DNA of 64,000 nucleotides from Nematostella vectensis (Eukaryota). Every line of letters begins with the position of its first letter. The first letter of the stretch is position 1. Positions 45,749-62,383 of this stretch are shown in pieces. The stretch spans positions 6,257,459 to 6,321,458 of the forward strand of contig NC_064039.1 of NCBI RefSeq assembly GCF_932526225.1, given 5' to 3'. The translations under genes were made by a program, and so were the position numbers. The notes under the pieces are model-generated. The model was not told where the DNA came from and did no database searches. It was given only the letters and a program-made list of their open reading frames with translations.

Positions 45749-46300
45749 AGTAGTAGGGTTTTGGCGCAGCTGGCGCAACTTTTTGATCTCCCCAAATTTC
45801 ATTCCAAAAGTGGCGCAAAAGTCTCCGCACACCTCCGCCAAGCCTCGCGACCTGCGCATGCGCGAGTTTGCCAGAGATCTCTCGCACGACCAAGCCCACC
45901 TGTCAATCACTTTGTCACGTGACGGCCACGCCCACCTGTCAATCACTTTGTCACGTGACGGCCACGCCCACCTGTCAATCACTTTGTCACGTGATAGCCA
46001 CGCCCACCTGTCAATCATTTTGTAAAAAACCTGTCAATCACTTTGTCACGTGATGACCACGCCCACCTGTCAATCATTTTGTCAAAAACCTGTCAATCAC
46101 TTTGTCAAAAACCTGTCAATCACTTTGTCAAGAACCTGTCAATCACTTTGTCAAAAACCTGTCAATCACTTTGTCAAGAGCCTGTCAATCATTTTGTCAC
46201 GTGATAGCCAAGCCCACCTGTCAATCACTTTGTCACGTGCTGCACCTAGGGGGAGCCTGGGGGCTATTCTGGTCTAAAGACGTATGAGACCCTAGATAAA

Positions 46301-46561
46301 ATGACATTAAAGACGGAGGTGAAGATTAAAAACGGTGCGGCTACCGCCGGCGGTTGTTCGGTGCCGGAGGTGAACGTGAGTAACACTGCGGATGCGGGGC
46401 CTGAACACTGCTGTTGTAACGCTGATTACTATGAAGACTCAGAATACGGAAGCTTCGACCCCGTTGGGTTTGTGGCCGGAGCGGCGACAATTGTCCTTGG
46501 TGTTCTAGCAATGTTAGTCTCCATGCCACGGTATGGCGAAAAAAGATGGGTGAGATACTAG
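46301..46561 (+). CDS. small hypothetical membrane protein (86 aa, one TM) encoded inside the left-TIR-specific insertion
   Basis: ORF with upstream TCTAAAGACG promoter-like motif; TM FVAGAATIVLGVLAMLVSM. Confidence 0.3.
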   Translation: MTLKTEVKIKNGAATAGGCSVPEVNVSNTADAGPEHCCCNADYYEDSEYGSFDPVGFVAGAATIVLGVLAMLVSMPRYGEKRWVRY

Positions 46562-46703
46562 TCCACGGATGTGGTGCGGAGGCTTTAGACCGCACCGCCC
46601 CCACGCGGACCCCTTCGGAAGTCTTAGCAACCACACACATCACACCCAGAGGGAGCTCGAGGGGCTAGCCTCTCAGCTTCACATCTAAAAAAGCTTTTGA
46701 AAA

Positions 46704-46716
46704 GTGGTTTAAAGAC
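46704..46716 (+). promoter_or_regulatory. conserved promoter motif GTGGTTTAAAGAC 18 nt upstream of the TFIIB-like gene ATG
   Basis: identical motif and spacing at 47752-47764 (ankyrin), 48651-48663 (Cys-rich) and reverse-complement 61839-61852 (pPolB). Confidence 0.6.
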
Positions 46717-46733
46717 ATGAACAGTTTAATAAA

Positions 46734-47660
46734 ATGGAGGAACGAACAGTTGAACGTACGGCTGAAGATCGGTCACCACCACCATATAATATCCTCGGCG
46801 GACCGGTGCCTGAGATTAACGCCCCCACCCTCATGCCGGAATTTGCACTGTTTGACCGAGCCCTCACCGAATACGAGACTAGTAGAGCCTCCTTGGGAGA
46901 CGAGGATAGTAGTAACACCCTTTGCAATCATGGCGACCTAGTCACAGAGGACGGGGTCACTAGTTGCTTAGAGTGCGGGGAACAGATGCAGCGCGTGATC
47001 GCGCACGAAAGGGAATGGGGTTTTTACGGACATTCCGACGGCGAACGGTCTTCGGATCCAAGTCGGGTCCAGGTACGTAGGTCTGAGGATAGAAATATTG
47101 ACAAGGATGTGGAGAACATGGGTTTTAGCGGGGTAATTGTATCCAAAGCTAACGAGATATACACTCAGGTGACGAAAGGCCAGATTTTTCGCGGCGACCC
47201 ACGGAAGGCGGTCGTCTTTGCGTGTATCTACTACGCCTACAAGATGTCCGGTAAGTGTCAGACACCGAAAACCTTGATGGAAACTTTTGGATTGAGCAGG
47301 AAGAGTTGCCTTAAGGGTCTAAAAATCTTTAGTATTAACGTGCCTAAAGATTACTTACTACACGGAACGTCTCCCACCGTCGTGGACCACATTCACGATG
47401 TGATGGATAGATTCTCGGCGTCCCCCGCACAGAAGGGAGAGGTGGTCCAGCTCTACTACAGATCTAAGAACCGCTCGTCTGAGTTGAATCGCGCTCGCCC
47501 ACAATCCTTTGCGGTCGCTTTAACCTATTACTGGGTACGGCTAAAGGGGGTCGATATTACACTTAAAAAATTCTCCGAAAGAACGGGCGTCTCCGAGTTA
47601 ACCATCAGTAGGAAAGCGAGAGAAGTGGCCACAGTCCTGGGTACGCCTGGTGTGGTATGA
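46734..47660 (+). CDS. TFIIB-like transcription initiation factor (N-terminal Zn ribbon C-x-H-x15-C-x2-C, B-reader/linker, two cyclin-like repeats, C-terminal HTH)
   Basis: LCNHGDLVTEDGVTSCLECGEQ…EREWGFY parallels TFIIB [24 protein letters not shown]…GSEWRTF; core ANEIYTQV…AVVFACIYYAYKMSG…TLMETFGLSRKSCLKGLKIF parallels TFIIB cyclin repeat 1. Confidence 0.8.
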   Translation: MEERTVERTAEDRSPPPYNILGGPVPEINAPTLMPEFALFDRALTEYETSRASLGDEDSSNTLCNHGDLVTEDGVTSCLECGEQMQRVIAHEREWGFYGHSDGERSSDPSRVQVRRSEDRNIDKDVENMGFSGVIVSKANEIYTQVTKGQIFRGDPRKAVVFACIYYAYKMSGKCQTPKTLMETFGLSRKSCLKGLKIFSINVPKDYLLHGTSPTVVDHIHDVMDRFSASPAQKGEVVQLYYRSKNRSSELNRARPQSFAVALTYYWVRLKGVDITLKKFSERTGVSELTISRKAREVATVLGTPGVV

Positions 47661-47664
47661 TGTT

Positions 47665-47688
47665 TCCTGATTTCCAGAGAAATCAGGA
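47665..47688 (+). terminator. perfect 10-bp stem/4-nt loop hairpin 5 nt after the TFIIB-like stop codon (TCCTGATTTC-caga-GAAATCAGGA)
   Basis: seen in sequence; a similar hairpin follows the Cys-rich gene. Confidence 0.35.
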
Positions 47689-47751
47689 TTTCCAGAAAAC
47701 TGTCAGTTCGGAGTAGATGTGAATTAACACGTCTAAAGAAATTCGAAAAAA

Positions 47752-47764
47752 GTGGTTTAAAGAC
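47752..47764 (+). promoter_or_regulatory. promoter motif GTGGTTTAAAGAC 18 nt upstream of ankyrin gene ATG
   Basis: see 46704. Confidence 0.6.
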
Positions 47765-47781
47765 GTGGATGTAATAACAAA

Positions 47782-48606
47782 ATGGATATGCAAAGTGCTG
47801 GAAGTCTTACAAATCTCACCGTGGAGGATCAAGCCGCCACCTTAGCGAGGTGGGGAGCCGCAGACTTTGACGCCGTTATGGAGCGCGCGGCGTGGGAGGG
47901 GTGCGTCGAGACCGTGAGGTTGTGTAAGAGTTGGGGTGCGACGGATTTCGAAAAGCCGATGGTCAGGGCCGCAATGAACGGCCACACCGAGATCGTTAAG
48001 ATGTGTTGTGAGTCGGGCGCCTGTGACTTCGTGTATCCAGCGTCCATGGCCGCGAAAGGCGGGCACGTAGAGGTTTTGAAGGTGATGGGCGAGTATTGTG
48101 CCGACGGAGGAGAGGCCATGACCGAGGCCATGGGTGCTGCGGCGGCGGAAGGTCAGGTGGGGGTTGTTGAGTTGTTGATAGATCTAGGTGTCGATGTCGA
48201 TGTCGGTTGGGCCACCGCTGAGGCGGCGTACAATGGGCACGTTGAGGTTCTGAAGCTGCTGAGAGAAAACTTCTGGGAGTTTGACCCGGACTATGCTATA
48301 ACACCAGCCATCGAATCTCGCAACCTCGAGATTGTGAGGTTGTGCTTGGAGTGGGGCGCGACCGATCTCATTGTACATATGAACTACGCACGGTTTTGGC
48401 ATCTGCATAAGATTTTCGCGGTGCTACGTGCGGCGTGGGGGTGGAGTCTTGTGCATGAGGAGCTCCCGGAGAAGCTACACAAGGTGAGATTCCGTAGAAA
48501 GCTGGAGGACGAACTAATGCCAGTAGCTTGGCATCCGGACAGGTTTTGGGATTGGTGCATGGATGAGCAAGAGAAGGAAATGTTGGGAGAATGCTTCGCC
48601 AGGTAG
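47782..48606 (+). CDS. ankyrin-repeat protein (at least 5 ANK repeats: …AAMNGHTEIVKMCCESGA…, AAKGGHVEVLKVM, AAAEGQVGVVELLIDLGVDV, AAYNGHVEVLKLL, …NLEIVRLCLEWGA)
   Basis: repeated ~33-aa ANK consensus (A.-G----V--LL--GA). Confidence 0.8.
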   Translation: MDMQSAGSLTNLTVEDQAATLARWGAADFDAVMERAAWEGCVETVRLCKSWGATDFEKPMVRAAMNGHTEIVKMCCESGACDFVYPASMAAKGGHVEVLKVMGEYCADGGEAMTEAMGAAAAEGQVGVVELLIDLGVDVDVGWATAEAAYNGHVEVLKLLRENFWEFDPDYAITPAIESRNLEIVRLCLEWGATDLIVHMNYARFWHLHKIFAVLRAAWGWSLVHEELPEKLHKVRFRRKLEDELMPVAWHPDRFWDWCMDEQEKEMLGECFAR

Positions 48607-48650
48607 ACGCCGACCGGCTAGAAGGCGGGTATCGCGTGTTGGATTGAAAA

Positions 48651-48663
48651 GTGATTTAAGGAC
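48651..48663 (+). promoter_or_regulatory. promoter motif GTGATTTAAGGAC abutting the first ATG of the Cys-rich gene. The 60 bp around it duplicates the pPolB promoter/5' end.
   Basis: AAAGTGATTTAAGGACATGACCGGTTTGATAGAAATGGAGAAC versus AAAGTGGTTTAAAGACATGACTGGTTTGATAGAAATGGAGAAC (pPolB). Confidence 0.6.
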
Positions 48664-49011
48664 ATGACCGGTTTGATAGAAATGGAGAACCAAACGGTGA
48701 AAGACTCGAAAGTATCCCCCGTAAAGCGAACAACGGATTATAAGTGTCTTCATGGCAGAGTGAAATATTATTGCAAAGATTGTCACGGATCGCAAATCTG
48801 CCCTCACAACCGGAGAAAAACGCGGTGCAGAGAATGTAACGGCGGTAGCATTTGTGAGCACAGACGAGCAAGATATGTCTGTAAAGACTGCAAGGGGAAA
48901 GGGATGTGTGAACACAGCAAACAGAGACCCTTTTGTAAGTTATGCGGAGGGTCTCAAATATGCGAACACGATAGACAAAAGCACCATTGCAGAACGTGTA
49001 ACGGAAATTAA
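48664..49011 (+). CDS. basic Cys-rich protein with four tandem zinc-knuckle-like modules C-x2-C-x5/6-C-x-H-x6-C. Putative nucleic-acid-binding/core protein. N-terminal MTGLIEMEN shared with pPolB.
   Basis: CKDCHGSQICPHNRRKTRC / CRECNGGSICEHRRARYVC / CKDCKGKGMCEHSKQRPFC / CKLCGGSQICEHDRQKHHC; K/R/H-rich. Confidence 0.65.
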   Translation: MTGLIEMENQTVKDSKVSPVKRTTDYKCLHGRVKYYCKDCHGSQICPHNRRKTRCRECNGGSICEHRRARYVCKDCKGKGMCEHSKQRPFCKLCGGSQICEHDRQKHHCRTCNGN

Positions 49012-49026
49012 CATTGACCCACTCAG

Positions 49027-49053
49027 TTTTGTAACGCGTCTCACGTTACAAAA
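49027..49053 (+). terminator. 10-bp stem hairpin (TTTTGTAACG-cgtctca-CGTTACAAAA) 16 nt after the Cys-rich gene stop
   Basis: seen in sequence. Confidence 0.35.
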
Positions 49054-49208
49054 CACATACATTCCTAATCACCCTAACAACTAGCGATTCTGAAAATAGG
49101 TTTTGTATTTACATTGAGAGTTCGCGGTCGCCAGGGTGGTCTGGTATGCACGTGAACAGGTATTGTCTTCTTGCGGTACGTCACATCCGTCCACATGCAC
49201 CCCGCATG

Positions 49209-50735
49209 TTACCGGAATAGATACCAAGCTAAACCAGCCGTAAAGGCTGTGATCGTGACAAGGTTATTTTCGTGCTGCGTGTTCGTGGGTTTAATCACGT
49301 CCGGCTTTGGGTTAGTTTTCGCCTCCGGTTCCGGTTTGTGAGCCGTGACTGACTCGGTATGAGGTAACACAATCTTTGAATGACCCATATTATGTTTAGG
49401 GATCGTTTTTATCTCGTTATTTATCGGATTCAGCCCCAGTTTCATATCAGTGGTGGCTTTTTGTAACTTGTTATTATAGCCAGCGATCGAAGTGTTGTTA
49501 TTTATCACAAGATACGATGGACTTAACCAACAGCCGAGGGCGAAAGCTAGGTCTAGTTTTTGTCTCGCCTGTTGTAAAGCAAACTGATACCGTTGTATAC
49601 TTTTCGATATACTGTTTTCCACCACCGCGCTTTCGAAGAGTTTCGTGAAGACCTGTTTCGTTTCCTGAGCTGAACCGCTATCGCCGACGATTGACGACCG
49701 GGTCTGAACTTGCGCGCCTAGAATACAGTAGACAAAGGCTTCGATGCTCTGGTTTATCCTAGACAACCCAGCTTTGGTTAACCCCATTGATTTTTCCGGA
49801 AAGAACCACTCATACTGAAACCCAGTTCTAAGGTCTTTCAGGTACTCGATCTCAAAGTGATTCATGTGTTCGTGGTCGCTTTTGGCAGCGTCCCATTCGT
49901 CGTGTAATTGATCAATGGTGCCATAAGGCTTATACTTGTCGTTAGAAGATGACAAGCCGTGATAATCATAATTATAAACGTTCCCTAACCCGTGATTTAT
50001 CGGTCTGAGGAACCGGAAATCGTCACCAGTTCGGAATTCTGTTCTTAGTTTTTGGTAAGCCGCTTCGCTGTAAAAGTTTTTATTCCAACTAAAGAGCCTA
50101 TCTTTTGGAAGAGGGCATTGTAGCTCGTTTAATATTCGTCTGATAGTGAAAATGATGTGAAATCTGTAGAATGACCCCACTTGAGAGTCGTCAATCATGT
50201 CACGCGTCACACCACATCCAGCAGTCGCGCAAAACATAGCAAAATTTAAGGCTTGACTCCAATAACTGAGGTTTGGGGCGTCGAGCCACCTACTAGCCTC
50301 CTTTGCTGTTCTGAATACTAGCAAGCTGTCGGTGAATATGTCCCTAAAAACAAAGTGTGTCTTCACCTTTGGTGTTATAAAAACATTAAAAGAGACGTAA
50401 TTATTTCTCGTAGGGTTTTCGTCCCACGGCAATATCTTGTACTCTGCACGCGCGTCTAGTCTGTATTGTTTTGGGAACCCAAACAGTTGCTGGATCGTTT
50501 CCTTGTATGCTTGTGTGTCGTCGGCGACTAGAAAATCCTGGATATTCTCGGGTTTCCAGCTATTACCAGGGAAGTGATATAACGTTTTGACTAGATTCCC
50601 ATTCTTGTCGAATGGATCGTATTCGTCCCCATTGAAAACGAATTGCACATTGCCGTGCCCGTCGGCAGAGAACCTGAAGCGTGAGTAGTAGGGGTACCTT
50701 TTCACAAATTCTGTAAACTTCATCTTATATGACAT
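49209..50735 (-). CDS. hypothetical 508-aa protein with C-terminal transmembrane anchor (LVTITAFTAGLAWYLFR); no recognisable family
   Basis: long intact ORF with GATTTAAAAACATC promoter-like motif upstream; second in-frame ATG (M5) has the canonical spacing. Confidence 0.6.
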   Translation of the reverse strand: MSYKMKFTEFVKRYPYYSRFRFSADGHGNVQFVFNGDEYDPFDKNGNLVKTLYHFPGNSWKPENIQDFLVADDTQAYKETIQQLFGFPKQYRLDARAEYKILPWDENPTRNNYVSFNVFITPKVKTHFVFRDIFTDSLLVFRTAKEASRWLDAPNLSYWSQALNFAMFCATAGCGVTRDMIDDSQVGSFYRFHIIFTIRRILNELQCPLPKDRLFSWNKNFYSEAAYQKLRTEFRTGDDFRFLRPINHGLGNVYNYDYHGLSSSNDKYKPYGTIDQLHDEWDAAKSDHEHMNHFEIEYLKDLRTGFQYEWFFPEKSMGLTKAGLSRINQSIEAFVYCILGAQVQTRSSIVGDSGSAQETKQVFTKLFESAVVENSISKSIQRYQFALQQARQKLDLAFALGCWLSPSYLVINNNTSIAGYNNKLQKATTDMKLGLNPINNEIKTIPKHNMGHSKIVLPHTESVTAHKPEPEAKTNPKPDVIKPTNTQHENNLVTITAFTAGLAWYLFR

Positions 50736-50813
50736 ATAAGATGTTTTTAAATCAGTCCTTTACGCATCTCAATTCATAGATCCATCCGACGGGAGTTCTC
50801 TCGTACAGAAATT

Positions 50814-51419
50814 TCACCGAGCGGGTCGACTCGCCAGGTCTTTCAAAATCTCTTCTCTTACTGTTTCCCTCAGCTTGGTAATGTTTACGTTTTTTTCGTC
50901 CTCTCTTACCGACTTTTGACGGATCTGGAGCTTTAGAGCCTCAAACTTGTCCACCTCGTTCAAGATTAAAGAGAACTCTTCGTCTGATATTTTGTTGTCT
51001 TTTAAAGCTTTAGAGACCAGGTCGCGTATGCTATTTACTTTTGCCTTTGCCATCGCCGCTGTTTGGTCGTGCTTGGAGACTTTTTGCGACAGCCGTTTAG
51101 AAACCGCCGCACAGCCTACAGACGTAAGACCGAAAACACCGGCCAAAGCACCCAACGGAACTCCGACGACGATACCAAAACCTGACAGAGAAGTCCCCAA
51201 ACCACTAGACCCAAGAATGACGGATAAGAGTCCTAAGACCACACTTAACTTTGAAAACACGCTCTGCCCTCGTTTATACTTTTTCCTCACGTTCTCGTAA
51301 TGTTTAACTTCTTGCTCCAAACTTCCCAAAACATCGTGGGTCTTTTGGAGTCTGAAGTTATCACCCGAGGGGCTGACCCCTCGGGGTACGTTCGGGTAGA
51401 TTGAGTTGTACTCTTCCAT
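50814..51419 (-). CDS. hypothetical membrane protein (201 aa, two glycine-zipper TM helices, C-terminal coiled coil)
   Basis: ORF plus upstream CACTTAAAGAAT motif. Confidence 0.55.
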   Translation of the reverse strand: MEEYNSIYPNVPRGVSPSGDNFRLQKTHDVLGSLEQEVKHYENVRKKYKRGQSVFSKLSVVLGLLSVILGSSGLGTSLSGFGIVVGVPLGALAGVFGLTSVGCAAVSKRLSQKVSKHDQTAAMAKAKVNSIRDLVSKALKDNKISDEEFSLILNEVDKFEALKLQIRQKSVREDEKNVNITKLRETVREEILKDLASRPAR

Positions 51420-51446
51420 AGCTTTATTATGGGGAGAATTTATTCT

Positions 51447-52070
51447 TTAAGTGATTTCTAAAATTAGACGTATCGGGTAGAGACCGCGCTCTATTGTGTT
51501 TCCGTCACCACCCTTTATACTAAGACGGAGACTACTCACGTAACCGACTGATGTGGTGCTAACCCGTACCGGATCGCTTGGATTGAGGTATATCTTTCCT
51601 TCATCAAGCTCTACACTTGCTAGGATTTGTGAGGGCGCCCCTTGTTGGAGGGAGTCAGACGCGTTCACAAGATCGCAGTGGATAAAAATAGCCTCGTGAC
51701 CTATCATCTTTATCTCGTGGCGAGTGTTTGCTTCCAGCTCCCTGGTCTTGAGTCCTAACAGGCAGGCGAGCGGCTCATTCAACGCGACGTTCCGGTGAAC
51801 TTCGAGTGACGAGTCTCTAATAGAGACTGACTTTTCACCAAGACGCATACCCCCATCTATTTGACGTTTTAGCGTCTCGATCGTATACTGCCCCGCGGGG
51901 ATCCTAAGGATAATGTTCTCACCGTCGGAGACCGTTCCCTCGCTTGAGAGACTGTTACAACGATTATGAAACGCACATCCTCGCAGCGCGATAAACCGCG
52001 GCTTTTCAATAGGTTGTTCTAAATAGACAGTAAAGTCACCAACGTTTCCTTCAATGTAGAGTAATACCAT
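51447..52070 (-). CDS. hypothetical beta-rich 207-aa protein; candidate single-jelly-roll minor capsid (penton) protein
   Basis: size, position in the virion-gene block and alternating hydrophobic pattern; upstream GATTTAAAAGGAGAC motif. No motif-level recognition. Confidence 0.45.
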   Translation of the reverse strand: MVLLYIEGNVGDFTVYLEQPIEKPRFIALRGCAFHNRCNSLSSEGTVSDGENIILRIPAGQYTIETLKRQIDGGMRLGEKSVSIRDSSLEVHRNVALNEPLACLLGLKTRELEANTRHEIKMIGHEAIFIHCDLVNASDSLQQGAPSQILASVELDEGKIYLNPSDPVRVSTTSVGYVSSLRLSIKGGDGNTIERGLYPIRLILEIT

Positions 52071-52073
52071 TTG

Positions 52074-53096
52074 TTATGATTTCCGTCTCCTTTTAAATCG
52101 TTCTACGGAATACAGGACGACAGCGACGATGAGAAGCCATGCGTTTTTAGCTAAAAAGCCAACAACTTCACCTGCCGTTCTAAATATGAAACTAGCTATA
52201 GCACCAACCATTCCTGGGAGTATTTCTCCTAATTTTTTGCCTATTGTTTTCAGACCATTTCCAACACCTTTTGCAACACTAGTCAGCCCAGCTTTCAGAT
52301 TAGAGACAATAACACCGATAACAACGCCCACAGCGGTAACGACAGCAGCGACTGTAAATCCGTATTTCTTAAAAATCGCTTTGACACGATCTTTCAACGA
52401 CATTCTCTCTTCAAGATTTTCTCTCTCCAATTGATTCTCTTCCAAAGTCTCATCTATGACAGAATTTCTTTCGCTGAGCTCTTCATTTTTACGATCTATA
52501 GCTCTTAGTCTTTCTTGGTTAGTTGTTTCACTTCGTTCCTCATTATTTTTTCTCATTTGCTCGGTGTTTCTCTCTTCTTCTTCTCTGAGTGTATTACCTG
52601 TAGCGTCTAGTTCATCGAGTTGAATCTGAATTTGCTTGTACTTTCCGGATCTGATTTTGTCGTCAACACTCTTCCGCACCGTTCTATCCTCATTATACAA
52701 CCTTTCTGGTCTAGTCCAACCACCTTTTCTCGCAGAATAGAAGGAAATGAATTGTTTTCCTCTCTCATCCGTTGAAATCTGAACTAGATTTTCATCAAGA
52801 TCTGGATATTTCGATAACAAAAGGTCTACCCTAAGTGTGTCCGTTGAAGGAGAACCTCCCATATTCTGTAACTCCATGTACTCGGGGACAGCCCTCCCGG
52901 GGTTTCGTGTTTTCCATAAGTCAGTCAACCTCCTACTCACATAGCTTGCACCTCTACCAAATCTGTTTGAAATCCTTTCATTCCATGATTCTCTTCCCTC
53001 ACCATCGTTTGGAATAAGAGAGTCATAATCTTCGTCTACAGTAGTATTCAAATCTTCTCTACCTTCTTCTGTTGTGGGATCAAAATCTATATCCAT
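52074..53096 (-). CDS. hypothetical 340-aa protein: acidic N-terminus, E/R-rich coiled coil, C-terminal multi-TM region
   Basis: ORF plus upstream GACTTAAAGATTT motif. Confidence 0.55.
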   Translation of the reverse strand: MDIDFDPTTEEGREDLNTTVDEDYDSLIPNDGEGRESWNERISNRFGRGASYVSRRLTDLWKTRNPGRAVPEYMELQNMGGSPSTDTLRVDLLLSKYPDLDENLVQISTDERGKQFISFYSARKGGWTRPERLYNEDRTVRKSVDDKIRSGKYKQIQIQLDELDATGNTLREEEERNTEQMRKNNEERSETTNQERLRAIDRKNEELSERNSVIDETLEENQLERENLEERMSLKDRVKAIFKKYGFTVAAVVTAVGVVIGVIVSNLKAGLTSVAKGVGNGLKTIGKKLGEILPGMVGAIASFIFRTAGEVVGFLAKNAWLLIVAVVLYSVERFKRRRKS

Positions 53097-53140
53097 TTCT
53101 TATTTTGTTTGAAAATAAGAAATCTTTAAGTCGTGCCAGC

Positions 53141-53557
53141 TCATATCCACCTACTCGCTACATAGCCAAGGGCTAACATTCCACCTCCAACGTACGCCAT
53201 CTCTCCCATCTTTTGGTTGCTACTTGGTCTGTAGTAATCTGAGAGCTCAGGCTCTTTCAAATCAAAATCTGGATGTGTTTGAGCGTATAGTTTGAAAGCC
53301 TCATCCGTCTCTTTATCGTTCTCATCCGCACGAACTTTATCGTTGTATTGTTCAGTCAACCAATCCTGGTATTCCTGTCTTTTTTTCTGCCAATCACCCA
53401 TTGCTTGTTGATACTTTTCAAGCGCTTTATCGTGTCTTATTTTTTCTTTATCAACATGAGTAGCGTCAGAAGACAAGTATCTCGCTAGGTAACTCCCTCC
53501 GACAAACGCCGTCGCATTAATAAAAGCCCCACCAATCATAAATGCTATACTCGCCAT
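53141..53557 (-). CDS. hypothetical membrane protein (138 aa; N- and C-terminal TM segments)
   Basis: ORF plus upstream CGACTTAAAGATC motif 19 nt from ATG. Confidence 0.5.
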   Translation of the reverse strand: MASIAFMIGGAFINATAFVGGSYLARYLSSDATHVDKEKIRHDKALEKYQQAMGDWQKKRQEYQDWLTEQYNDKVRADENDKETDEAFKLYAQTHPDFDLKEPELSDYYRPSSNQKMGEMAYVGGGMLALGYVASRWI

Positions 53558-53589
53558 TTATTAATCAATCTATAAGATCTTTAAGTCGC

Positions 53590-53814
53590 CTACAGCGGTT
53601 TTGGCAAAATCTTTTGTGTTTCCAGATAATCTTTCAGATACATACTACCGGACAGGACAGCAACCCATTTAGCGTAGTTTGTAACACTTGACGAAGGGTC
53701 GCTGATGAATGACTCTTTCATAGCCTTTTTAGCAACATAACCCACGCCGGCGGCTAATCCGATGATGACTGCTGAGTCGGTGATCGTTTTCACAAGTTTG
53801 TTTTCAGTTGACAT
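53590..53814 (-). CDS. hypothetical small membrane protein (74 aa)
   Basis: ORF plus upstream GATTTAAAGATTATC motif, preceded by the 30-bp palindromic element. Confidence 0.45.
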   Translation of the reverse strand: MSTENKLVKTITDSAVIIGLAAGVGYVAKKAMKESFISDPSSSVTNYAKWVAVLSGSMYLKDYLETQKILPKPL

Positions 53815-53849
53815 GATTTTATTTATTACAGATTCAGATAATCTTTAAA

Positions 53850-54311
53850 TCACAACATTCCTATTTTTGGCGTCGCGTTCGGGAGGCTAGCCCCTCGAGC
53901 TCCCCCTAGGTGGGAGGTGGGTCTCCCAAGAGTTTCGGCCTCGTTGACGTTAATCTTAGACGGCTCGCCCTCTTTCTTTTTGTAAAAACGCATATACATA
54001 TCCAATGCGGTGAGCCCTATTCCAACTAGAGCCAGTACAGTTGTAAACGATAGCTCTGGAATCCAAGCGTCCGAGAGGCTATCCCCTCGAGCTCCCTCTT
54101 GGTGGGGTGTCTCTGCTCGTGCAGCGTCTTCTGAACTCGCCTCCGCCTCGCGTTTCATCTCCCTAGCAAGTGCTTCTCTACACCTCCTATTATATTCGGC
54201 AACTCTCTTACCAGAAGCGACTTTTATAGGATCTTTCTCCTTAGCGGCACTCTTCTTCCTGGGGGGAGGGTCCTTTGTGATTTGCTCAACCTCTTGATTT
54301 TCGTCAGACAT
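53850..54311 (-). CDS. hypothetical 153-aa protein, basic N-terminus plus one TM
   Basis: ORF plus upstream GATTTAAAGATTC motif. Confidence 0.5.
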   Translation of the reverse strand: MSDENQEVEQITKDPPPRKKSAAKEKDPIKVASGKRVAEYNRRCREALAREMKREAEASSEDAARAETPHQEGARGDSLSDAWIPELSFTTVLALVGIGLTALDMYMRFYKKKEGEPSKINVNEAETLGRPTSHLGGARGASLPNATPKIGML

Positions 54312-54453
54312 GATTCTTTACTCACTGAATAAAGAATCTTTAAATCACATCATGCTCAAGAGCTTGCTCAGTTGTGCTCAAGAGCTTGCTCAGGTGTGCT
54401 CAAGAGCTTGCTTAGGTGTGCTCAGGTGTGCTCAAGAGTTTGCTTAGGTGTGC

Positions 54454-54981
54454 TCAGGTGTGCTCAAGAGTTTGCTCAGTTGTGCTTGAAACTTCTTGAA
54501 GTTTGTTGGAAGTCTCCTGTGAAGGTGTTAGTTTAACATGCTTAGCGACCCGAAAGATGGCACTAGCAAGTGCTACCATCCTTCCTCCCTTCAATACCAA
54601 GAGACCTGCAAAGTTTGACAATTCGCGTTTAACCAACTCGTCGTTCTGTAAGTCTTTGCTAAGCGCTTCGGTGTCATCTACAGGAACCACGTAGGAAATG
54701 ACTTGAGACACCACTTGAAGTGCTGATTCTACTAATCCATCAGTAACTTGTTTGCCTAAGACAGTCTGGTAGCGAACAAAGTACTTTTCGACGTCTTTCG
54801 CCGGGAGCTTCTTGATGTCCCCTAAACTCATGTCCACACCAAGAAATTCCTTCGTAGTCCCAAGAGATGCGAGAATAGCCAGCGATTCTCGTTTGACTTC
54901 AACATCGTCTTCGAGAGGCTCACCCTTCGAGCTCCCCTTAGACTTAGGCTCCTCTTCCATATAATCCTCAATGCTTGCCAT
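54454..54981 (-). CDS. hypothetical 175-aa acidic protein (likely start MASIEDYMEEE…; the six-frame ORF extends to 55047)
   Basis: AAGTGGTTTAAAAACATC motif lies 25 nt upstream of the internal ATG at 54981, and the 30-bp palindrome abuts it. Confidence 0.5.
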   Translation of the reverse strand: MASIEDYMEEEPKSKGSSKGEPLEDDVEVKRESLAILASLGTTKEFLGVDMSLGDIKKLPAKDVEKYFVRYQTVLGKQVTDGLVESALQVVSQVISYVVPVDDTEALSKDLQNDELVKRELSNFAGLLVLKGGRMVALASAIFRVAKHVKLTPSQETSNKLQEVSSTTEQTLEHT

Positions 54982-55043
54982 CTTATTTTGTAAGTAGACC
55001 AAGATGTTTTTAAACCACTTCGAGGGGTCAGCCCCTCGAGCTC

Positions 55044-55670
55044 TCACCGCGTGGCAGGAATCTCCAAATAACGTTGGAATGGATGTCGTAGGCAGAAACA
55101 GAGTCTGGAATACTTTTCAGTTTTCAGCAGTTCTACAAACTTTTTACGAGTCTCAACGTCTAAGTCACCCCCATAATCTTCAAACAGTGTTTTGGTACCG
55201 ATTTGAGATGGATTATGGAATGTAACCACACAGGCGACGTTATCACGGAAGGGCTTTGCTATGGATGTTAATTGTTGCGTCAATACCCACACTGATAATC
55301 CTTCGTGTCTCCCTGAGAACGCTAAATTGATAAACTTGTTCGAGCGTTGCTTTAGATCTTTCGATACAGCACAGTCATCCAAAACGAGTAACGTATTTGT
55401 ACCAGAAAATAGCACCGCACAATCTGTTAGTAACTCGTTAATCTCATCGGTGTTACTAGCATCCGGCGATAATACCAAGAAACGTTTATCTCCGTGAGCA
55501 AATCTACGATAGGACTTGTTTTTCGCATAAGTCGGACAAATCAACACAATGTATTCAAACACATGCCGGAACGGCCCTCGGAGCTGTTCCGTGAGGTACT
55601 TTGTCTTCCCACAATTAGTAGGTCCTGTGATAATACAATGAAAAGGAACTTTTTCCCGTAATTCTTCCAT
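55044..55670 (-). CDS. FtsK/HerA-superfamily (A32-like) genome-packaging ATPase; Walker A GPTNCGKT, Walker B LLVLDD. Likely start MEELREK (the ORF call 55044..55691 starts on a non-ATG codon).
   Basis: P-loop and hhhhDD motifs, ~210 aa, location next to capsid gene as in Polintons/virophages. Confidence 0.85.
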   Translation of the reverse strand: MEELREKVPFHCIITGPTNCGKTKYLTEQLRGPFRHVFEYIVLICPTYAKNKSYRRFAHGDKRFLVLSPDASNTDEINELLTDCAVLFSGTNTLLVLDDCAVSKDLKQRSNKFINLAFSGRHEGLSVWVLTQQLTSIAKPFRDNVACVVTFHNPSQIGTKTLFEDYGGDLDVETRKKFVELLKTEKYSRLCFCLRHPFQRYLEIPATR

Positions 55671-55698
55671 TCTTTTTGTATTATCACACAAGTCCTTT

Positions 55699-56937
55699 TT
55701 AATACATGATTGCTCTCAAATTCGAGTTCATAACCTCCATCAACGCGTCGGCTACTACAAACATGTAGCAGGTGATGTTTCCCGTTCCTCCAACTTTTCG
55801 TTTCATCTCGAGTTTTACTCCGTCTCGCGTGTTGTTCAAGACCAGACCTCCTCCGTGAATGCTGTTATCTGGGTGTGCCCTCAAGTCGACCCACAGAGCA
55901 AACTTGTTATTAGCGTAAAAATCCTTTTGCTTGACACCCTCTCTACCGAAACGTTTCTTTACCGACTCCCAGAGGTCCGGCGGTGTCATCCCCTTGGAGT
56001 AGAGACGGTTTGGCATGCCATCCACATTAATGTTGATCGATGTGATGCTTGGATTGACAAACTTTTCGGAATCCCTTGCTCCTCCGGTGTAGCTCTCTGT
56101 GAACAGGCACAATATCCCTGTCATTGACCTCCTCGGCAGATTAATGTGCTCGTTTATGACACCATCATTAGGTTTGGAGATGGTGAACGTTTTGTGGAGA
56201 ATGACGTTCTCGTAAAAGAATCCTCTACCAACCTGATAAGCCGACAACGCCTCACGAGCTAAGTATTCACTTGAGATGCAAGCATATTCCAACTCGAGGT
56301 TTGTGATTGTGTACGTTGGAGTCTTGACCGTGTCAGCATAAACAACGACGTCGGAAACTGGGGCTAGAGTAATTTCAAAGATTAGCGGATGAGGTAACGC
56401 CTTTGGATAAAAGACCCCATGCTCGCCGAGAATAGGATGGTCGAGTGGAATGCAGTACTTGGTGTTGTGAACTGCTGCAAGAGCTACTTCCTTAGCATCT
56501 GATGTCGCTTTGTCACCTGCATTTGTCCTGAGCTTCCTCATGTTCTCAGAGGAGATACCTTGTTTTATTCTATCCTCACGATCTTCAGCTTGTAAGTATA
56601 AGTCGTGATAGGTTTGGAAGAGATCGTATCTTTGAGTATCCTGTAGTGTTTCTCCACCGAAAAGAATCTTGAGCCTTGACACTAGGTTCCGGCCAACGTT
56701 GTTGACGAGAGTATTATTCGCGTGTCCTGTGACGTTTAAGTCAAATAGTAAGGATACACTACCTGGAACAATCACTACATTTTCAGCAAGTTTTGGAATA
56801 TTTATATAGAGGGTTTCTCCAGGACTTGCCGATGAGGGATTGAATGTAATCCGATTCAGCGACGATTCCGCTTTCAGGCCGAAGGGTTCCCGTGGGATCC
56901 TGTTTGGGTTAATTTTTTCTGATATCGCTTGTGCCAT
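55699..56937 (-). CDS. putative double-jelly-roll major capsid protein (412 aa)
   Basis: beta-rich 45-kDa protein immediately upstream of the packaging ATPase, the conserved MCP position in Polintons; no direct motif proof. Confidence 0.55.
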   Translation of the reverse strand: MAQAISEKINPNRIPREPFGLKAESSLNRITFNPSSASPGETLYINIPKLAENVVIVPGSVSLLFDLNVTGHANNTLVNNVGRNLVSRLKILFGGETLQDTQRYDLFQTYHDLYLQAEDREDRIKQGISSENMRKLRTNAGDKATSDAKEVALAAVHNTKYCIPLDHPILGEHGVFYPKALPHPLIFEITLAPVSDVVVYADTVKTPTYTITNLELEYACISSEYLAREALSAYQVGRGFFYENVILHKTFTISKPNDGVINEHINLPRRSMTGILCLFTESYTGGARDSEKFVNPSITSININVDGMPNRLYSKGMTPPDLWESVKKRFGREGVKQKDFYANNKFALWVDLRAHPDNSIHGGGLVLNNTRDGVKLEMKRKVGGTGNITCYMFVVADALMEVMNSNLRAIMY

Positions 56938-56970
56938 CTTTTATTTTAAGAAAAGAGAGATAATCTTTAA
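56938..56970. promoter_or_regulatory. 33-bp bidirectional promoter between MCP (-) and integrase (+): TTTTAAGAAAAGAGAGATAATCTTTAAA carries the TTTAAAGA-type motif in both orientations
   Basis: palindromic arrangement TTTAAGA…TCTTTAAA. Confidence 0.5.
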
Positions 56971-57963
56971 ATGAGTAACGAAAGCAGGTTATCAAAAATA
57001 TACTATTCCACCGATGGATACTGGAAAGGGTATTCAGCTATTTATAAGTTAGCTAGTGTCGCTAAAGTCAGTGAAGCCGAGGCTAAGAGGTGGCTTGAAA
57101 AACAGGCGTTGTGGCAGATCTATCTCCCAGCTCCAAAGTATGTCCCCAGACCGCATTGGACTGTGAATAAACCTAATCAGATTCACCAAGCCGATCTGTT
57201 GTTTATGCCCCACGATAACGTAGGCAGAAAAACCTACCGTTACGCGTTGGTCGTGATTGATATTGCCTCGAGATATAAAGATGCAGAAGCACTGACTACC
57301 AAGGATTCGAGTGGAATTGCTAAAGGGTTTGAAAAGATATACTCCAGAAAACTTAAATGGCCTCATACGGTGATTGTCGATCCGGGGACAGAATTTAGGG
57401 GAGAGGTAACGAAGATTATGAAAAAGAAGGGGGTTACCATCCAGCGAAGCGAAGCTGGGAACCATCGCGCACAGGCTTTTGTCGAACGCGCCAATAGAAC
57501 ACTGGCGGAGAGGTTGTTTTCTTATCAGTATGCTCAAGAAATGATTAGCGATGATCGGTCCAGAGTTTGGGTGAAACGATTGCCAGATGTTTTGAAGACT
57601 CTGAATAGTCAACCCATAAGAATTACTGGCAAAGAGCCTGTAAAATCTATTGGTTTGAAAGAGGTTGATATTGACCCTCCAACGTATAAGCGGCCTGTTG
57701 GACTTGACGAAGTTAGACTACCACCAGGGGTTAGAGTTAGATATCTATTAGCTCCTGGAGAAGAGGAAGGAGGTGAACGCAGACGAGCCACAGACCCCAT
57801 TTGGAGTTTGAAAGTGTTTGATCTATCACGCAGTGTTGTTTCGGTTGGGCAGCCTGTGTTGTACTACCTCTCCGAAGGCGCTCCAAGGAGGTCGTTCGTT
57901 AGGGAAGAACTTCAAGTCGTCCCTGAAGATACTGAGCCACCACCTAATAGCGTTCTGAAATGA
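56971..57963 (+). CDS. retroviral-type (rve) DDE integrase with C-terminal extension
   Basis: catalytic triad context HQADLLF (D) … VIVDPGTEF (D) … NHRAQAFVERANRTL (E); ~35-aa D-E spacing. Confidence 0.9.
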   Translation: MSNESRLSKIYYSTDGYWKGYSAIYKLASVAKVSEAEAKRWLEKQALWQIYLPAPKYVPRPHWTVNKPNQIHQADLLFMPHDNVGRKTYRYALVVIDIASRYKDAEALTTKDSSGIAKGFEKIYSRKLKWPHTVIVDPGTEFRGEVTKIMKKKGVTIQRSEAGNHRAQAFVERANRTLAERLFSYQYAQEMISDDRSRVWVKRLPDVLKTLNSQPIRITGKEPVKSIGLKEVDIDPPTYKRPVGLDEVRLPPGVRVRYLLAPGEEEGGERRRATDPIWSLKVFDLSRSVVSVGQPVLYYLSEGAPRRSFVREELQVVPEDTEPPPNSVLK

Positions 57964-60900
57964 CCGTGAGCGAAGGTGTGAATACCATCATCACAGATGA
58001 CCCGTTTATCATCCTCATGAGATAGAGCGACCTTGTTCACCGTTTCAGTGTAAACATCATGCTTATGACTTCTGATGACATTCATAAGTCTCATCTGAGG
58101 TTTCTTACCAAATAAGCAATCCTTGTAGTCATCGAAACCGATGCTCTTCTTGACGACTGCTCTCTTGACGCCCTTGCATTTCTTTTCTTCTTTACCTTCA
58201 TCCATCTTGTACGAGTAAAGTTTGGCCCTCAGTCCTACAAATTCTGTGATTTGCTGGCCCCCAGCCTCATCTTTAAACATTCCGATGACTTTCTTGTTCA
58301 CACCCACCTCAATACCAGATGGGTGACCCTTCGGAAAGTTGCTGGTGTCGAACATGGACCTCACATCCCCGCTGATGTCCTCGTAAAAGTCTTTCGTCTC
58401 GATCTCATACATCAGGCTGTCAGTATCAGTGAATAAGAGCTTTGCATCCTCACCGTACTTAGGCTTGACGAAGTTGTAGTGGAAATCGTACATGAGCGTC
58501 TTACTCAGGTCCAGAATGGACATACCCAAGTAGACAGGCTTGTTGAAGATCAGCTTTGTCTTCTTCATGTGGATGGCGGCTAGATTCTCGCAAAAGATGG
58601 TGCGATGTTGATAGTTCGGCTTTGATATGAGCTTCTTGGCCTGCTTCTCGTCCGTCACCAACCGAATGTCCACCCTGTTCCTAATGTTCTCCATAGTCTT
58701 ACCAAAGACGGAGTTGTTCATTAACTTGAAAAAATCTTTCTCAAAATCGTTTGTCGCCTTGGCTCTCAGATCGGTGTTCAAGTCAATGTAGGGCTCCAGC
58801 CAAGCAGACTCCTCAAAAGTGACACCCCTGTGAATCTTGGTGACTTTTAGCCCAAAACTCACATAAAGTCTCAGAGTCTCATGGTGGATAACGTACTTTG
58901 TCTTGTCGTTAAGGTTGGGGACCAACTTGTCCACATTGCCTAGCCCGATAGATTCCGGGGCTAGTGGGTAATCGTTGTGTAAGTCATGTAGGTGGTGAGG
59001 GTACTCCAAGTCAACCTCCAGAATGCATGGGCGGTCTCTCCAACCTGACAGCTCTTGGTCACCCATCCACCTGAAACCGTGAGTCGGTAAAGGGTTGCTC
59101 ATCGCCCAGCCATACAAATTGTTAGCATCAAGGTAGGTGATATATTTTGTGGGTAGGTCAGGGTCATACTCCTTCATGTAAGGGTTATTTGCCTCCCCAT
59201 GTCTGTTGCTTATCATGGAGACACCCCCACGGATGCCCTTCTCAATCATGAGCAACATGTCATAGTCCGTTAGAAGCTCTAGCCTCACCTTGGTGGTCTT
59301 CAACGCTGCATCCCAAGCCAACCCTGGCGCTGTGTAGTACCAAGCGGGGTCCAGACCGTAATTCTTGAGACAAACGTCCCTAAAGTTCTCGAAAACGTCA
59401 GCTAAAAGCAACACATCCGACTCTAGGTACAGATTGTGGTAATCCCTCATGGTCCCCATCCCAAAGGCCTCCCACACTCTCCGCGCGTGCAGGTGATCCT
59501 CCTCCGATATGTCGGTGTCGTTGAGTTTGGAGTGGAACGCCTCTCTCTGTGGGAGCTGTGTTGCGTCGAGCTTGCTAAAGCCGTCGAACCAGTCGTAAGG
59601 GAAAACACCCTTCCTCAACAACAGCTGAAGCTCCTCCCCCTCATAGTACTCCGCCAGGTTTTTGAAGCACTCCCTTGACATATTACCCACTAGACTGTCG
59701 AGACTGGCCGACATAAACCTGAAACTGTCGATAAATCTGATATCACGTTTAACATCAATCTTGTTGCCCTCCTTGTTCGTGAAACTGTCGACTACAATCT
59801 GTTTTGTGAAAGAAATATACTTTTCCTCGTTATTAGGTATACAGTTTATTTTACCTTCCGATGTACCAAGGTTCTTGATAAATAGATGGCTGTCGTACCC
59901 AGACAGATTGTGAAAGATAACAGGAAAGAACTTTGGAATTTTGTGATCTAAGTTGCATGCGTTGTGAGCAGCACCTCTGTACTTCCCTGTAAGGTGGCAA
60001 TGGTCCAAAACCTTGTCTTCCCCTAATTCACCCTCACAGATGTGGCAGTGAGTGGCGTCGTTATAGGCGATTTTGTCCTTCGGAGTCATTTTCACCTTCT
60101 TAGGGAACCTGAACTTATCATAAATTTTCTTAATGTCTGACTCCAAAGACTCTACGAAAAGCTGTGGGATATCTTCGTCTGGAGATTCAGCTGTGTATCG
60201 TACAAGCTCGGATGGGGATATATCTCCGTCGAAACACTTGATGAGATAGCAGAAACCAGACGGTTTGTGTTTCTGGTATTGCTTAGTGAAGCTTTTACTC
60301 TCATCTGGGGAGCATGTGTCTATATTCTCTGTGAAGCTCTCAAAGTCGGCGTAGACAACAAAGGGGACACGCATTTTTCTGTTGTAGTTTTTGAATTTAA
60401 TGTGGGGTAGATTTCCATCCTTATCTATCTTAGGCATCTCTATTCCAACCGCTTCATGATTGCCGCAGCATTCAGAATGTTTTTCTAATGATTGTTTGCA
60501 CCGAAACGAGTTCAGACATCTACAGCATAAAAAACGAGTATGATGAAACTCATCAATTTGAGTAGATACTAATCTCATCATATTCTTTATCCAGCAGTAA
60601 TGATTCGTCTCATCATCCGAGATGAGAAGTAAGTTGATTGCATTATCTGGATCCTTCTCACTGATTCTCAATGGATATATTTTGGTTTCGTATCCAAACA
60701 CATTAACCGTATACTGGTTCTGTTTCTCGAACTTGTCAATCTGTTTTAGTGAGACGGGGAACTCTATCCCTGACCAGTCGAATTTCTCAGAGCTCTCTAT
60801 CATTTGTTTACTGAACCTTTGAGGATCTTTCTCCCTAGGATACACAGCAGAGGTTACTGCCCACTTGAAACATTCGTGATCATTCTCGTTCTTAACATTG

Positions 60901-61838: not shown

Positions 61839-62383
61839 GTCTTTAAACCACTTTTCAAAAGCTTTTTTAGATGTGAAGCTTAGAGGCTAGCCTCCCGAGC
61901 TCCCCCTAGGTGCGACACGTGACAAAGTGATTGACAGGTGGGCTTGACTATCACGTGACAAAGTGATTGACAGGTTCTTGACAAAATGATTGACAGGTTC
62001 TTGACAAAATGATTGACAGGTTTTTTACAAAGTGATTGACAGGTGGGCGTGGCTATCACATGACAAAGTGATTGACAGGTTTTTGACAAAGTGATTGACA
62101 GGTGGGCTTGGCCGTCACGTGACAAAGTGATTGACAGGTTTTTTACAAAGTGATTGACAGGTGGGCTTGGCTATCACGTGACAAAGTGATTGACAGGTGG
62201 GCTTGGCTATCACGTGACAAAATGATTGACAGGTGGGCTTGGTCGTGCGAGAGATCTCTGGCAAACTCGCGCATGCGCAGGTCGCGAGGCTTGGCGGAGG
62301 TGTGCGGAGACTTTTGCGCCACTTTTGGAATGAAATTTGGGGAGATCAAAAAGTTGCGCCAGCTGCGCCAAAACCCTACTACT
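61839..62383. repeat. right TIR (545 bp) with ~12 TGATTGACAG-containing subrepeats and 4-5 CACGTG boxes
   Basis: reverse complement of left TIR. Confidence 0.9.

Follow-up and report, generated by a model that had tools for sequence, protein, structure and literature searches.

Why should a Polinton/Maverick element in the genome of a cnidarian carry a gene for a general transcription initiation factor, where did the gene come from, and which RNA polymerase could its product serve? The question is raised by a TFIIB-like gene in a 64,000-nt stretch of Nematostella vectensis DNA (contig NC_064039.1, positions 6,257,459 to 6,321,458). This whole stretch is called the window here, and positions are counted from its first letter. 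Our analysis indicates that the gene is almost certainly, by identity and by origin, the TFIIB of a giant virus (Nucleocytoviricota), which was captured by one Nematostella Polinton lineage. RefSeq already labels these N. vectensis proteins TFIIB-like; what is new is an animal Polinton that carries a giant-virus general initiation factor behind its own promoter.

A preliminary description of this DNA had reported a 308-aa open reading frame (ORF) with a TFIIB-type zinc ribbon, a B-reader-like segment, two cyclin-like repeats and a C-terminal helix-turn-helix. The ORF was found exactly where it had been placed (Table 1), and both peptides quoted from it, LCNHGDLVTEDGVTSCLECGE and HEREWGFYGHSDGERSSDPSRV, are present in its translation. 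Membership of the TFIIB family, for which a profile search had been proposed as a check, is borne out by the Pfam TFIIB repeat (PF00382), which matches the protein in two stretches (E=1.5e-8; 35 bits, where the gathering cut-off is 23.6 bits), and which matches 47 of 47 family members. Among the proteins of the PDB, human TFIIB is the best match (phmmer, 1.8e-5); with a profile of the 47-member family this match improves to 3.4e-8 and archaeal TFB is also recovered. In the alignment to human TFIIB, to which the protein is 28% identical, residues 122-296 lie on the cyclin core and residues 63-114, more weakly, on the ribbon and reader (CNHGD...CLECGE...EREWGFY...DPSRV against CPNHPD...CPECG...SEWRTF...DPSRV). 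The ribbon has the ligand pattern C64-x-H66...C78-x2-C81, and all four ligands are invariant in the 47 aligned family members. The parallel drawn with the TFIIB ribbon thus holds for the ligands, whereas the first spacing is one residue shorter than the human C-x2-H. Pfam Zn_Ribbon_TF reaches 32 of the 47 members at E<=1 (best 3.7e-4) and does not reach the window protein itself. The segment described as reader-like is a candidate B-reader: HEREWGFY...DPSRV aligns with human GSEWRTF...DPSRV, a stretch that is not significant by itself, and E94, W95, P109, R111 and V112 are invariant in the family alignment.

The predicted structure agrees with this domain order. The AlphaFold2 model has a mean pLDDT of 74, rising to 80-96 over the cyclin core, with a three-stranded ribbon at residues 69-87 and ten helices at 133-302; it is unstructured at residues 91-118 (pLDDT<50), the reader region. 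When the model was compared with the PDB by Foldseek, the top matches were TFIIB chains in human and yeast Pol II pre-initiation complexes and archaeal TFB, with a core rmsd of about 4 A; Brf1 and Brf2 ranked after these and cyclins only below them. The core superposes on the TFB/TFIIB cores 1ais_B, 1c9b_A and 1vol_A at 3.8-4.4 A over 178-184 columns. Pfam, model and Foldseek matches together support the two cyclin repeats and the helix-turn-helix. The 308-aa ORF encodes a full-length TFIIB-family protein.

The gene lies inside a bona fide complete Polinton, as had been assumed. The element has the ends 5'-AGTAGTAGGG...CCCTACTACT-3' with CCCTC(A) on both flanks, and terminal inverted repeats (TIRs) of ~500 bp each, built in part from 23/36/59-nt tandem units. 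Between them are found the DNA polymerase gene pPolB, an rve integrase gene, a capsid-like gene and a gene for an A32-type ATPase.

The window protein is closest to N. vectensis RefSeq entries that bear the name 'transcription initiation factor IIB-like'; at least 33 distinct intact sequences of 307-308 aa fall in one 90% cluster, and four more clusters stand at 83-89% identity. After these copies identity drops to 50-71%, in more than 100 metagenome proteins of about 275 aa. The homologues that were looked up lie on contigs of 14-366 kb, where the gene adjoins Rpb2, Rpb10, an NIF-type phosphatase and P9_TM, and in IMG/VR all 80 of 80 related loci are giant-virus genomes assembled from metagenomes (GVMAGs) or long viral contigs of up to 505 kb. 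An exhaustive profile search gave 2,034 cluster representatives, 315 of them below 1e-30. No close named virus was found in BFVD. The TFIIBs of marseilleviruses, mimivirids, pithoviruses and iridoviruses, and C315R-like proteins of the kind found in African swine fever virus (ASFV), match in fold at identities of 24% or less, which places the donor in an uncultured clade known only from metagenomes. The giant-virus loci carry the motif AAAATTGA at -50 to -41, an early promoter documented for mimivirus and mesomimiviruses; this early motif, taken by itself, suggests an Imitervirales-like donor clade.

Phylogeny points in the same direction. In neighbour-joining trees with human TFIIB as the only outgroup, the Nematostella clade fell outside all giant-virus sequences in 77 of 300 bootstraps, an ambiguous result that was resolved because 150 diverse representatives were added. 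With these the clade is monophyletic in 194 of 200 bootstraps. It lies outside all other sequences in only 9 of 200, and in 181 of 200 it joins near giant-virus sequences to the exclusion of human TFIIB and of every sequence below 45% identity. The element shares its genes for pPolB, integrase, capsid and ATPase, and six or seven ORFs besides, with three relatives in other genomes, the Polintons L086-L088 (capsid protein 69-85% identical); the TFIIB gene and the ankyrin-repeat gene that follows it in the window are absent from all three. Nesting among giant viruses, together with related Polintons that lack the gene, makes capture into the Nematostella Polinton lineage the parsimonious reading. 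The other element proteins matched nothing in 85 giant-virus loci by tblastn, and the ankyrin and capsid proteins gave essentially nothing in close-relative scans of IMG/VR. Thus, there is no evidence for a giant-virus source of the other element genes.

The preliminary description had argued that a best match of more than 90% identity to the host's own TFIIB or BRF gene would indicate a recent host capture or a misassembly. The best matches are indeed N. vectensis 'TFIIB-like' proteins more than 90% identical, yet they are paralogous copies, and with only 28% identity to human TFIIB they are not canonical host TFIIB. Apart from the RefSeq names of these top matches, little speaks for a host gene, a captured host gene or an artefact of assembly or contamination, to which we give practically no credence: identity to giant-virus proteins reaches 71%, the gene is present in many copies, it lies within the TIRs of an element flanked by a target-site duplication, and it is fused to element-derived 5' sequence.

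This fusion records how the gene was installed. The 105 nt that precede the TFIIB gene, GTGGTTTAAAGACATG included, match the upstream region of pPolB, at the opposite end of the element, with 88.6% identity. The TFIIB start codon corresponds to the second ATG (M7) of pPolB, a 1-nt indel having thrown the first ATG out of frame. TFIIB residues 19-35 (NILGGPVPEINAPTLMP) are 65% identical to pPolB residues 74-90 (E=2e-6), and the peptide [IL]L[GD]GP[IV]PEIN[AV]P[TI]L[MK]P is found only twice in the window, at 46790-46835 (+) in the TFIIB extension and at 61588-61617 (-) in pPolB. The start of the giant-virus protein (MSEF...) is kept as M34-PEF. The gene is thus a chimera in which the element's promoter and 33 codons were joined to a complete giant-virus ORF. 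GC content at third codon positions (GC3) is 0.56, close to that of the element (pPolB 0.57), against 0.17-0.41 in giant viruses, which argues that the gene is neither a contaminant nor a very recent arrival. The N. vectensis paralogues have the pPolB-derived extension in common, and we infer that they sit in Polinton copies. The duplicated peptide is kept, with changes, in other Nematostella TFIIB copies, and could be a functional linear motif (for targeting or packaging) or a mere remnant of the duplication. ILGG|P in the extension was considered as an adenain-type cleavage site and rejected, as the GG is not conserved (IPDG in P0002 and P0004). TFIIB P0176, which falls in the >=90%-identity cluster of P0001, and two proteins 95% identical to the capsid protein of this Polinton (P0187, P0188) were found on JGI metagenome contigs of 1.2-6.6 kb; such short environmental contigs could be Nematostella environmental DNA or free element particles.

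Conservation was compared at the protein level between six Nematostella sequences and 41 giant-virus homologues, which have 71 invariant residues. The Nematostella sequences keep about 89% of these residues, against about 56% matches at variable columns, and most of the changes at the invariant positions are conservative. Pairwise difference among the copies is lowest in the first cyclin repeat (6.0%), 7.7% in the ribbon and highest in the extension (21.8%), and no giant-virus-invariant position of the ribbon has changed. It could be argued that the gene is a passenger, captured by chance and without function for the element, as related Polintons manage without it and some copies have non-conservative changes (Y98R, R253C, L286P). 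We consider this improbable. Dozens of copies are intact and full-length, the invariant residues have been kept despite an overall divergence of about 30%, with ribbon and first cyclin repeat the least variable parts, and the gene is preceded by the element promoter of strongest consensus, in an intact copy.

In the window copy and in the most abundant Nematostella subfamily, G96 (codon 47019-47021) takes the place of the arginine of the EWR motif. R96 is kept in all giant-virus homologues, in human TFIIB and in 4 of the 6 Nematostella sequences compared. The EWR region of the B-reader governs start-site selection in cellular TFIIB. A glycine at this otherwise invariant reader residue would suit a decoy, in which the Polinton protein, with its high similarity to giant-virus TFIIB and its intact ribbon, titrates the RNA polymerase or TBP of a giant virus and damps viral expression to the benefit of element and host; integrated virophages are known from the literature as an inducible antiviral defence. 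The retention of R96 in most of the compared sequences speaks against such a role. The DNA- and TBP-binding cyclin core is best conserved, as expected of a working factor, and nothing specific to inhibition was seen, so that a decoy function appears quite unlikely to us.

The element-wide promoter motif that had been proposed for this Polinton does exist. The sequence nTGA-TTTAAAGA-(C/T) stands just upstream of nearly every element gene. Its strict form [TC]TTAAAG[AG] starts 8-36 nt before the ATG in 8 of 15 genes (0.008 expected for a random position; P about 1e-13), a relaxed pattern fits 14 of the 15 ATGs, and an unannotated 74-aa ORF carries the motif too. From the first T of the box to the ATG there are 26-34 nt in 10 genes. 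For pPolB and a Cys-rich gene, both of which start with MTGLIEMEN directly after TTTAAAGAC (61820-61838, -, and 48664-48684, +), the distance is 9 nt, and 27 nt if the second ATG is used. Both this spacing and the copy in front of TFIIB, with its frameshift, suggest that translation of the two genes really begins at the second ATG (M7). The canonical distance from TATA box to start in metazoans is about 30 nt. The spacing between box and ATG is too short for this, which argues for a non-canonical start-site geometry, and it is the TFIIB reader that governs this geometry.

The donor viruses have a similar box. A first k-mer enrichment was swamped by AT-rich words and was replaced by position- and strand-resolved counts. 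Across 1,269 unique upstream regions of the giant-virus loci, counts of TTTAAAG rise to a peak 26-28 nt ahead of the ATG, whereas those of its reverse complement stay flat. About 15% of the giant-virus ORFs have TTTAAA[AG] 22-34 nt upstream, alike in near, middle and distant relatives, and the largest gene family with this box is the TFIIB gene itself, preceded by it in six loci. Since motif class and spacing are shared, the element promoter resembles a second promoter class of the viruses that donated the TFIIB. In the published analysis of PgV, which is related to the uncultured clade, middle or late promoter motifs were not detected; the present counts show that a large clade of uncultured giant viruses has a second promoter class, the TATA-like box TTTAAA[AG] about 27 nt upstream of the ATG. 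Examples in loci L001-L085 are a minus-strand ORF at 3735 of L009 and a plus-strand ORF at 6962 of L010.

On balance, we think that the protein is probably a transcription initiation factor at the element's own promoters. Its cyclin core would bind the TBP-bent, TATA-like TTTAAAGA box before the element ATGs, and ribbon and reader would recruit a multisubunit RNA polymerase and set the start site near the box. The version we prefer, tentatively, is that in a co-infected cell the protein would work with an RNA polymerase of giant-virus type. In that case the Polinton would resemble a virophage equipped with its helper's initiation factor, and the Polinton genes would be transcribed by the viral machinery or would compete for it. 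We favour this version because the ribbon that docks to the polymerase has not changed, the element and the viruses have promoter class and spacing in common, and virophages and Polinton-like elements offer precedents for helper transcription. According to published work, integrated virophages and Polinton-like viruses depend on the helper for transcription and in some cases carry VLTF3, virophages and integrated virophage-like elements have promoters copied from their helper, and in ASFV the viral TBP and TFIIB are proposed late-promoter factors. All this hints that an animal Polinton may share or exploit a giant-virus gene-expression system. On a more far-reaching proposal, which we regard as rather doubtful, Nematostella or a close associate would be host to a giant virus still to be discovered, and this Polinton family would live on that virus as a virophage-like parasite or oppose it to the host's benefit; the TTTAAAGA promoters of the family would be read by the viral machinery, and one lineage would have taken the TFIIB gene of the helper in order to forestall the viral RNA polymerase or to hijack it.

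Several points weigh against a giant-virus origin and partner. All trees are neighbour-joining trees; with the single distant outgroup, human TFIIB, nesting was obtained in only about 68-74% of bootstraps, and the 150 representatives added later are unannotated. No giant virus of Nematostella or of any cnidarian was found in the literature, and there is no giant-virus sequence within the window. A Pfam scan of the ORFs recognised no TBP-like gene in the element, which encodes its own DNA polymerase and integrase. The relatives L086 and L087, which have no TFIIB gene, carry TTTAAAGA too; the motif is thus older than the capture and was not brought in with the gene. Moreover, TTTAAA is a TATA-like box of a generic kind, so that the specificity of the promoter match is only moderate. 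Finally, the reader/linker holds 5 of the 13 changes at invariant positions (K93R, R96G, Y98R, D102G and D108N), which could mean relaxation or adaptation to a different polymerase.

Such a polymerase could be that of the host. With the same viral origin, the protein could work in the nucleus with host TBP and host RNA polymerase II and replace host TFIIB on the TTTAAAGA promoters; its divergent B-reader would move the start site closer to the box, and Polinton expression would become independent of host TFIIB. The element is integrated in nuclear DNA and is, with pPolB and integrase, replication-competent on paper. The greater age of the TATA-like motif, the clustering of the changes in reader and linker and the want of a known cnidarian giant virus all suit a host partner, as does a residence long enough for composition to match the element. 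The docking ribbon, unchanged at every giant-virus-invariant position, and the low identity to human TFIIB speak against it, and so does the spacing. A box at 26-28 nt with the metazoan distance of about 30 nt would put the start at or past the start codon, and giant viruses have the same unusual spacing. We rate a host partner as nearly as likely as the viral one.

How does this gene compare with known systems? The TFIIBs of Nucleocytoviricota, where TFIIB is a core gene (ASFV C315R, marseilleviruses, mimivirids), have the same order of ribbon, reader-like segment and two cyclin repeats, and those of the uncultured clade also share the family-specific N-terminal helix and the C-x-H ribbon. 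Unlike them, the gene described here is carried by an integrating Polinton of 16.6 kb in an animal genome, and its product has a pPolB-derived extension of 33 residues. Cellular TFIIB, archaeal TFB and Brf are alike in fold and domain order, and the best matches among solved structures are TFIIB in Pol II complexes and TFB-TBP-DNA; cellular TFIIB differs in its C-x2-H spacing against C-x-H here, and in lacking the helix that precedes the ribbon here. The recognition helix reads ...TISRKARE in the Polinton protein and ...TIRQSYR in human TFIIB, which makes a different flanking-element specificity likely. With virophages and integrated elements (Sputnik, mavirus and its endogenous relatives (EMALEs), PgVV) the element shares its nature as a small, integrated, capsid-encoding element with one short giant-virus-like promoter motif before nearly every gene. 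Some Polinton-like viruses likewise carry a giant-virus-type transcription factor, VLTF3, and the PgVV capsid protein had earlier been observed to match best that of N. vectensis Polinton-3. In contrast to virophages and Polinton-like viruses, the element has a metazoan host, no known helper, and pPolB and rve integrase like classic animal Polintons; the factor that it carries is TFIIB, a general initiation factor.

Virophages, adenoviruses and giant viruses are regarded as descendants or close kin of Polintons. To our knowledge, almost nothing is known of Polinton gene expression in animals. A defined promoter motif and a cognate-looking factor encoded by the element itself make it directly testable in a tractable model cnidarian. 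The author of the preliminary description was not aware of TFIIB as Polinton or Maverick cargo, and in our literature search, likewise, no paper turned up that connects TFIIB with Polintons, Mavericks, virophages or Polinton-like viruses. The giant-virus origin of the gene implies that at some time an animal Polinton was present in the same cell as a giant virus, which bears on whether animal Polintons interact with giant viruses as virophages do in protists, and on giant-virus infection of cnidarians. The virophage-like reading, if true, would document for the first time in a metazoan a relationship between virophage and giant virus, and this would be the first mobile element shown with a general initiation factor.

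Table 1. Positions of the Polinton, its TFIIB-like gene and other features in the window
Feature	Position	Strand	Remarks
Polinton/Maverick, complete insertion	45749..62383		16,635 bp; 5'-AG...CT-3' termini; target-site duplication CCCTC(A)
Left terminal inverted repeat	45749..46261		23/36/59-nt tandem repeats (unit ACCTGTCAATCACTTTGTCACGTG...)
TFIIB promoter/leader	46640..46733	+	copy of pPolB upstream region; includes GTGGTTTAAAGAC (TTTAAAGA at 46708-46715), 26 nt before ATG
TFIIB-like gene	46734..47660	+	ATG-to-stop ORF, 308 aa plus stop
N-terminal extension, residues 1-33	46734..46832	+	Nematostella-specific, from pPolB 5' coding region; ILGGPVPEINAPTLMP matches pPolB residues 74-90
Zinc ribbon, residues 62-88	46917..46997	+	ligands C64, H66, C78, C81; family alignment, model
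B-reader/B-linker-like segment, residues 89-125	46998..47108	+	HEREWGFY...DPSRVQVR; human and family alignments
Two cyclin-fold repeats, about residues 126-210 and 211-308	47109..47657	+	C-terminal helix-turn-helix (SELTISRKAREV); Pfam, PDB alignment, model, Foldseek
Ankyrin-repeat gene	47782..48606	+	274 aa; second lineage-specific cargo; GTGGTTTAAAGAC promoter at 47756-47763, as for TFIIB gene
Cys-rich gene	48664..49011	+	115 aa; begins with copy of pPolB start (MTGLIEMEN)
Membrane-protein ORF (predicted segment)	53590..53814	-	74 aa, unannotated; preceded by ATTTAAAGATT at 53842-53849
A32-type packaging ATPase	55044..55691	-	Pfam Pox_A32, 43.4 bits, cut-off 22.8
Probable major capsid protein gene	55699..56937	-	promoter CATTTAAAGATT at 56964-56971
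rve-family integrase	56971..57963	+	Pfam rve, E=9.9e-8, 32.6 bits, exactly at cut-off
pPolB	57912..61838	-	1308-aa ORF; family-B motifs read directly
Right terminal inverted repeat	61894..62383		
UMP synthase (OPRT plus OMP decarboxylase)	17231-18664	+	host gene, intronless, 477 aa

In pPolB the family-B motifs could be read directly (Exo I YADFESF, motif A DANNLYG, motif B KLMNNSVFGKT, motif C FTDTDS). Pfam did not recognise the polymerase domain of the 1308-aa ORF and matched only an N-terminal SAP/Rho_N DNA-binding domain and an endonuclease-VII-like (HNH-type) insert (residues 587-630, 59946-60077 on the minus strand, E=7.8e-6). Homologues of pPolB adjoin rve and capsid genes in L086-L088, where the integrase gene is conserved as well. 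The capsid gene has a weak Pfam Capsid_N match (E=0.0036), below the cut-off, and 755 homologues, some with PF16903; hundreds of its relatives, at 62-85% identity, lie on Mb-scale contigs. Among the element ORFs scanned Pfam recognised no protease, and a penton protein was not identified.

The Cys-rich protein is built of repeated C-x2-C...G-x2-IC-x-H units and has no Pfam match. Its gene is conserved in L087 and L088 and is thus older cargo than TFIIB; the protein may resemble the cysteine-rich repeat proteins of algal giant viruses. The nearest relatives of the ankyrin gene are a 31-33% identical gene in a more distant Polinton (L090, 8001-8705) and arrays of ankyrin paralogues on L091, a gene-dense contig of 687 kb. 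L087 has a gene of the same size in the position that matches the 74-aa membrane ORF. The tandem units of the TIRs, at 45886-46199 and 61956-62242, contain ACCTGTCAATCACTTTGTCACGTG with a CACGTG palindrome and may be binding sites for a terminal or replication protein or for a host bHLH factor. A further tandem array of 22/32/54-nt units (TGCTCAAGAGCTTGCTCAGGTG) lies within the element at 54353-54486, between ORF197 and the promoter of ORF153.

Outside the Polinton, the intronless UMP synthase gene marks the flank as eukaryotic chromosomal DNA. The host flank also contains a C/T-rich minisatellite of 24 copies of a 40-nt unit, followed by a G/T-rich array of 24-nt repeats, at 36531-37484 and 38190-38500. 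These arrays, which are ordinary satellite DNA, account for the strong GC/AT-skew anomaly, and a 242-aa ORF that overlaps the minisatellite (36268-36996) is probably spurious.

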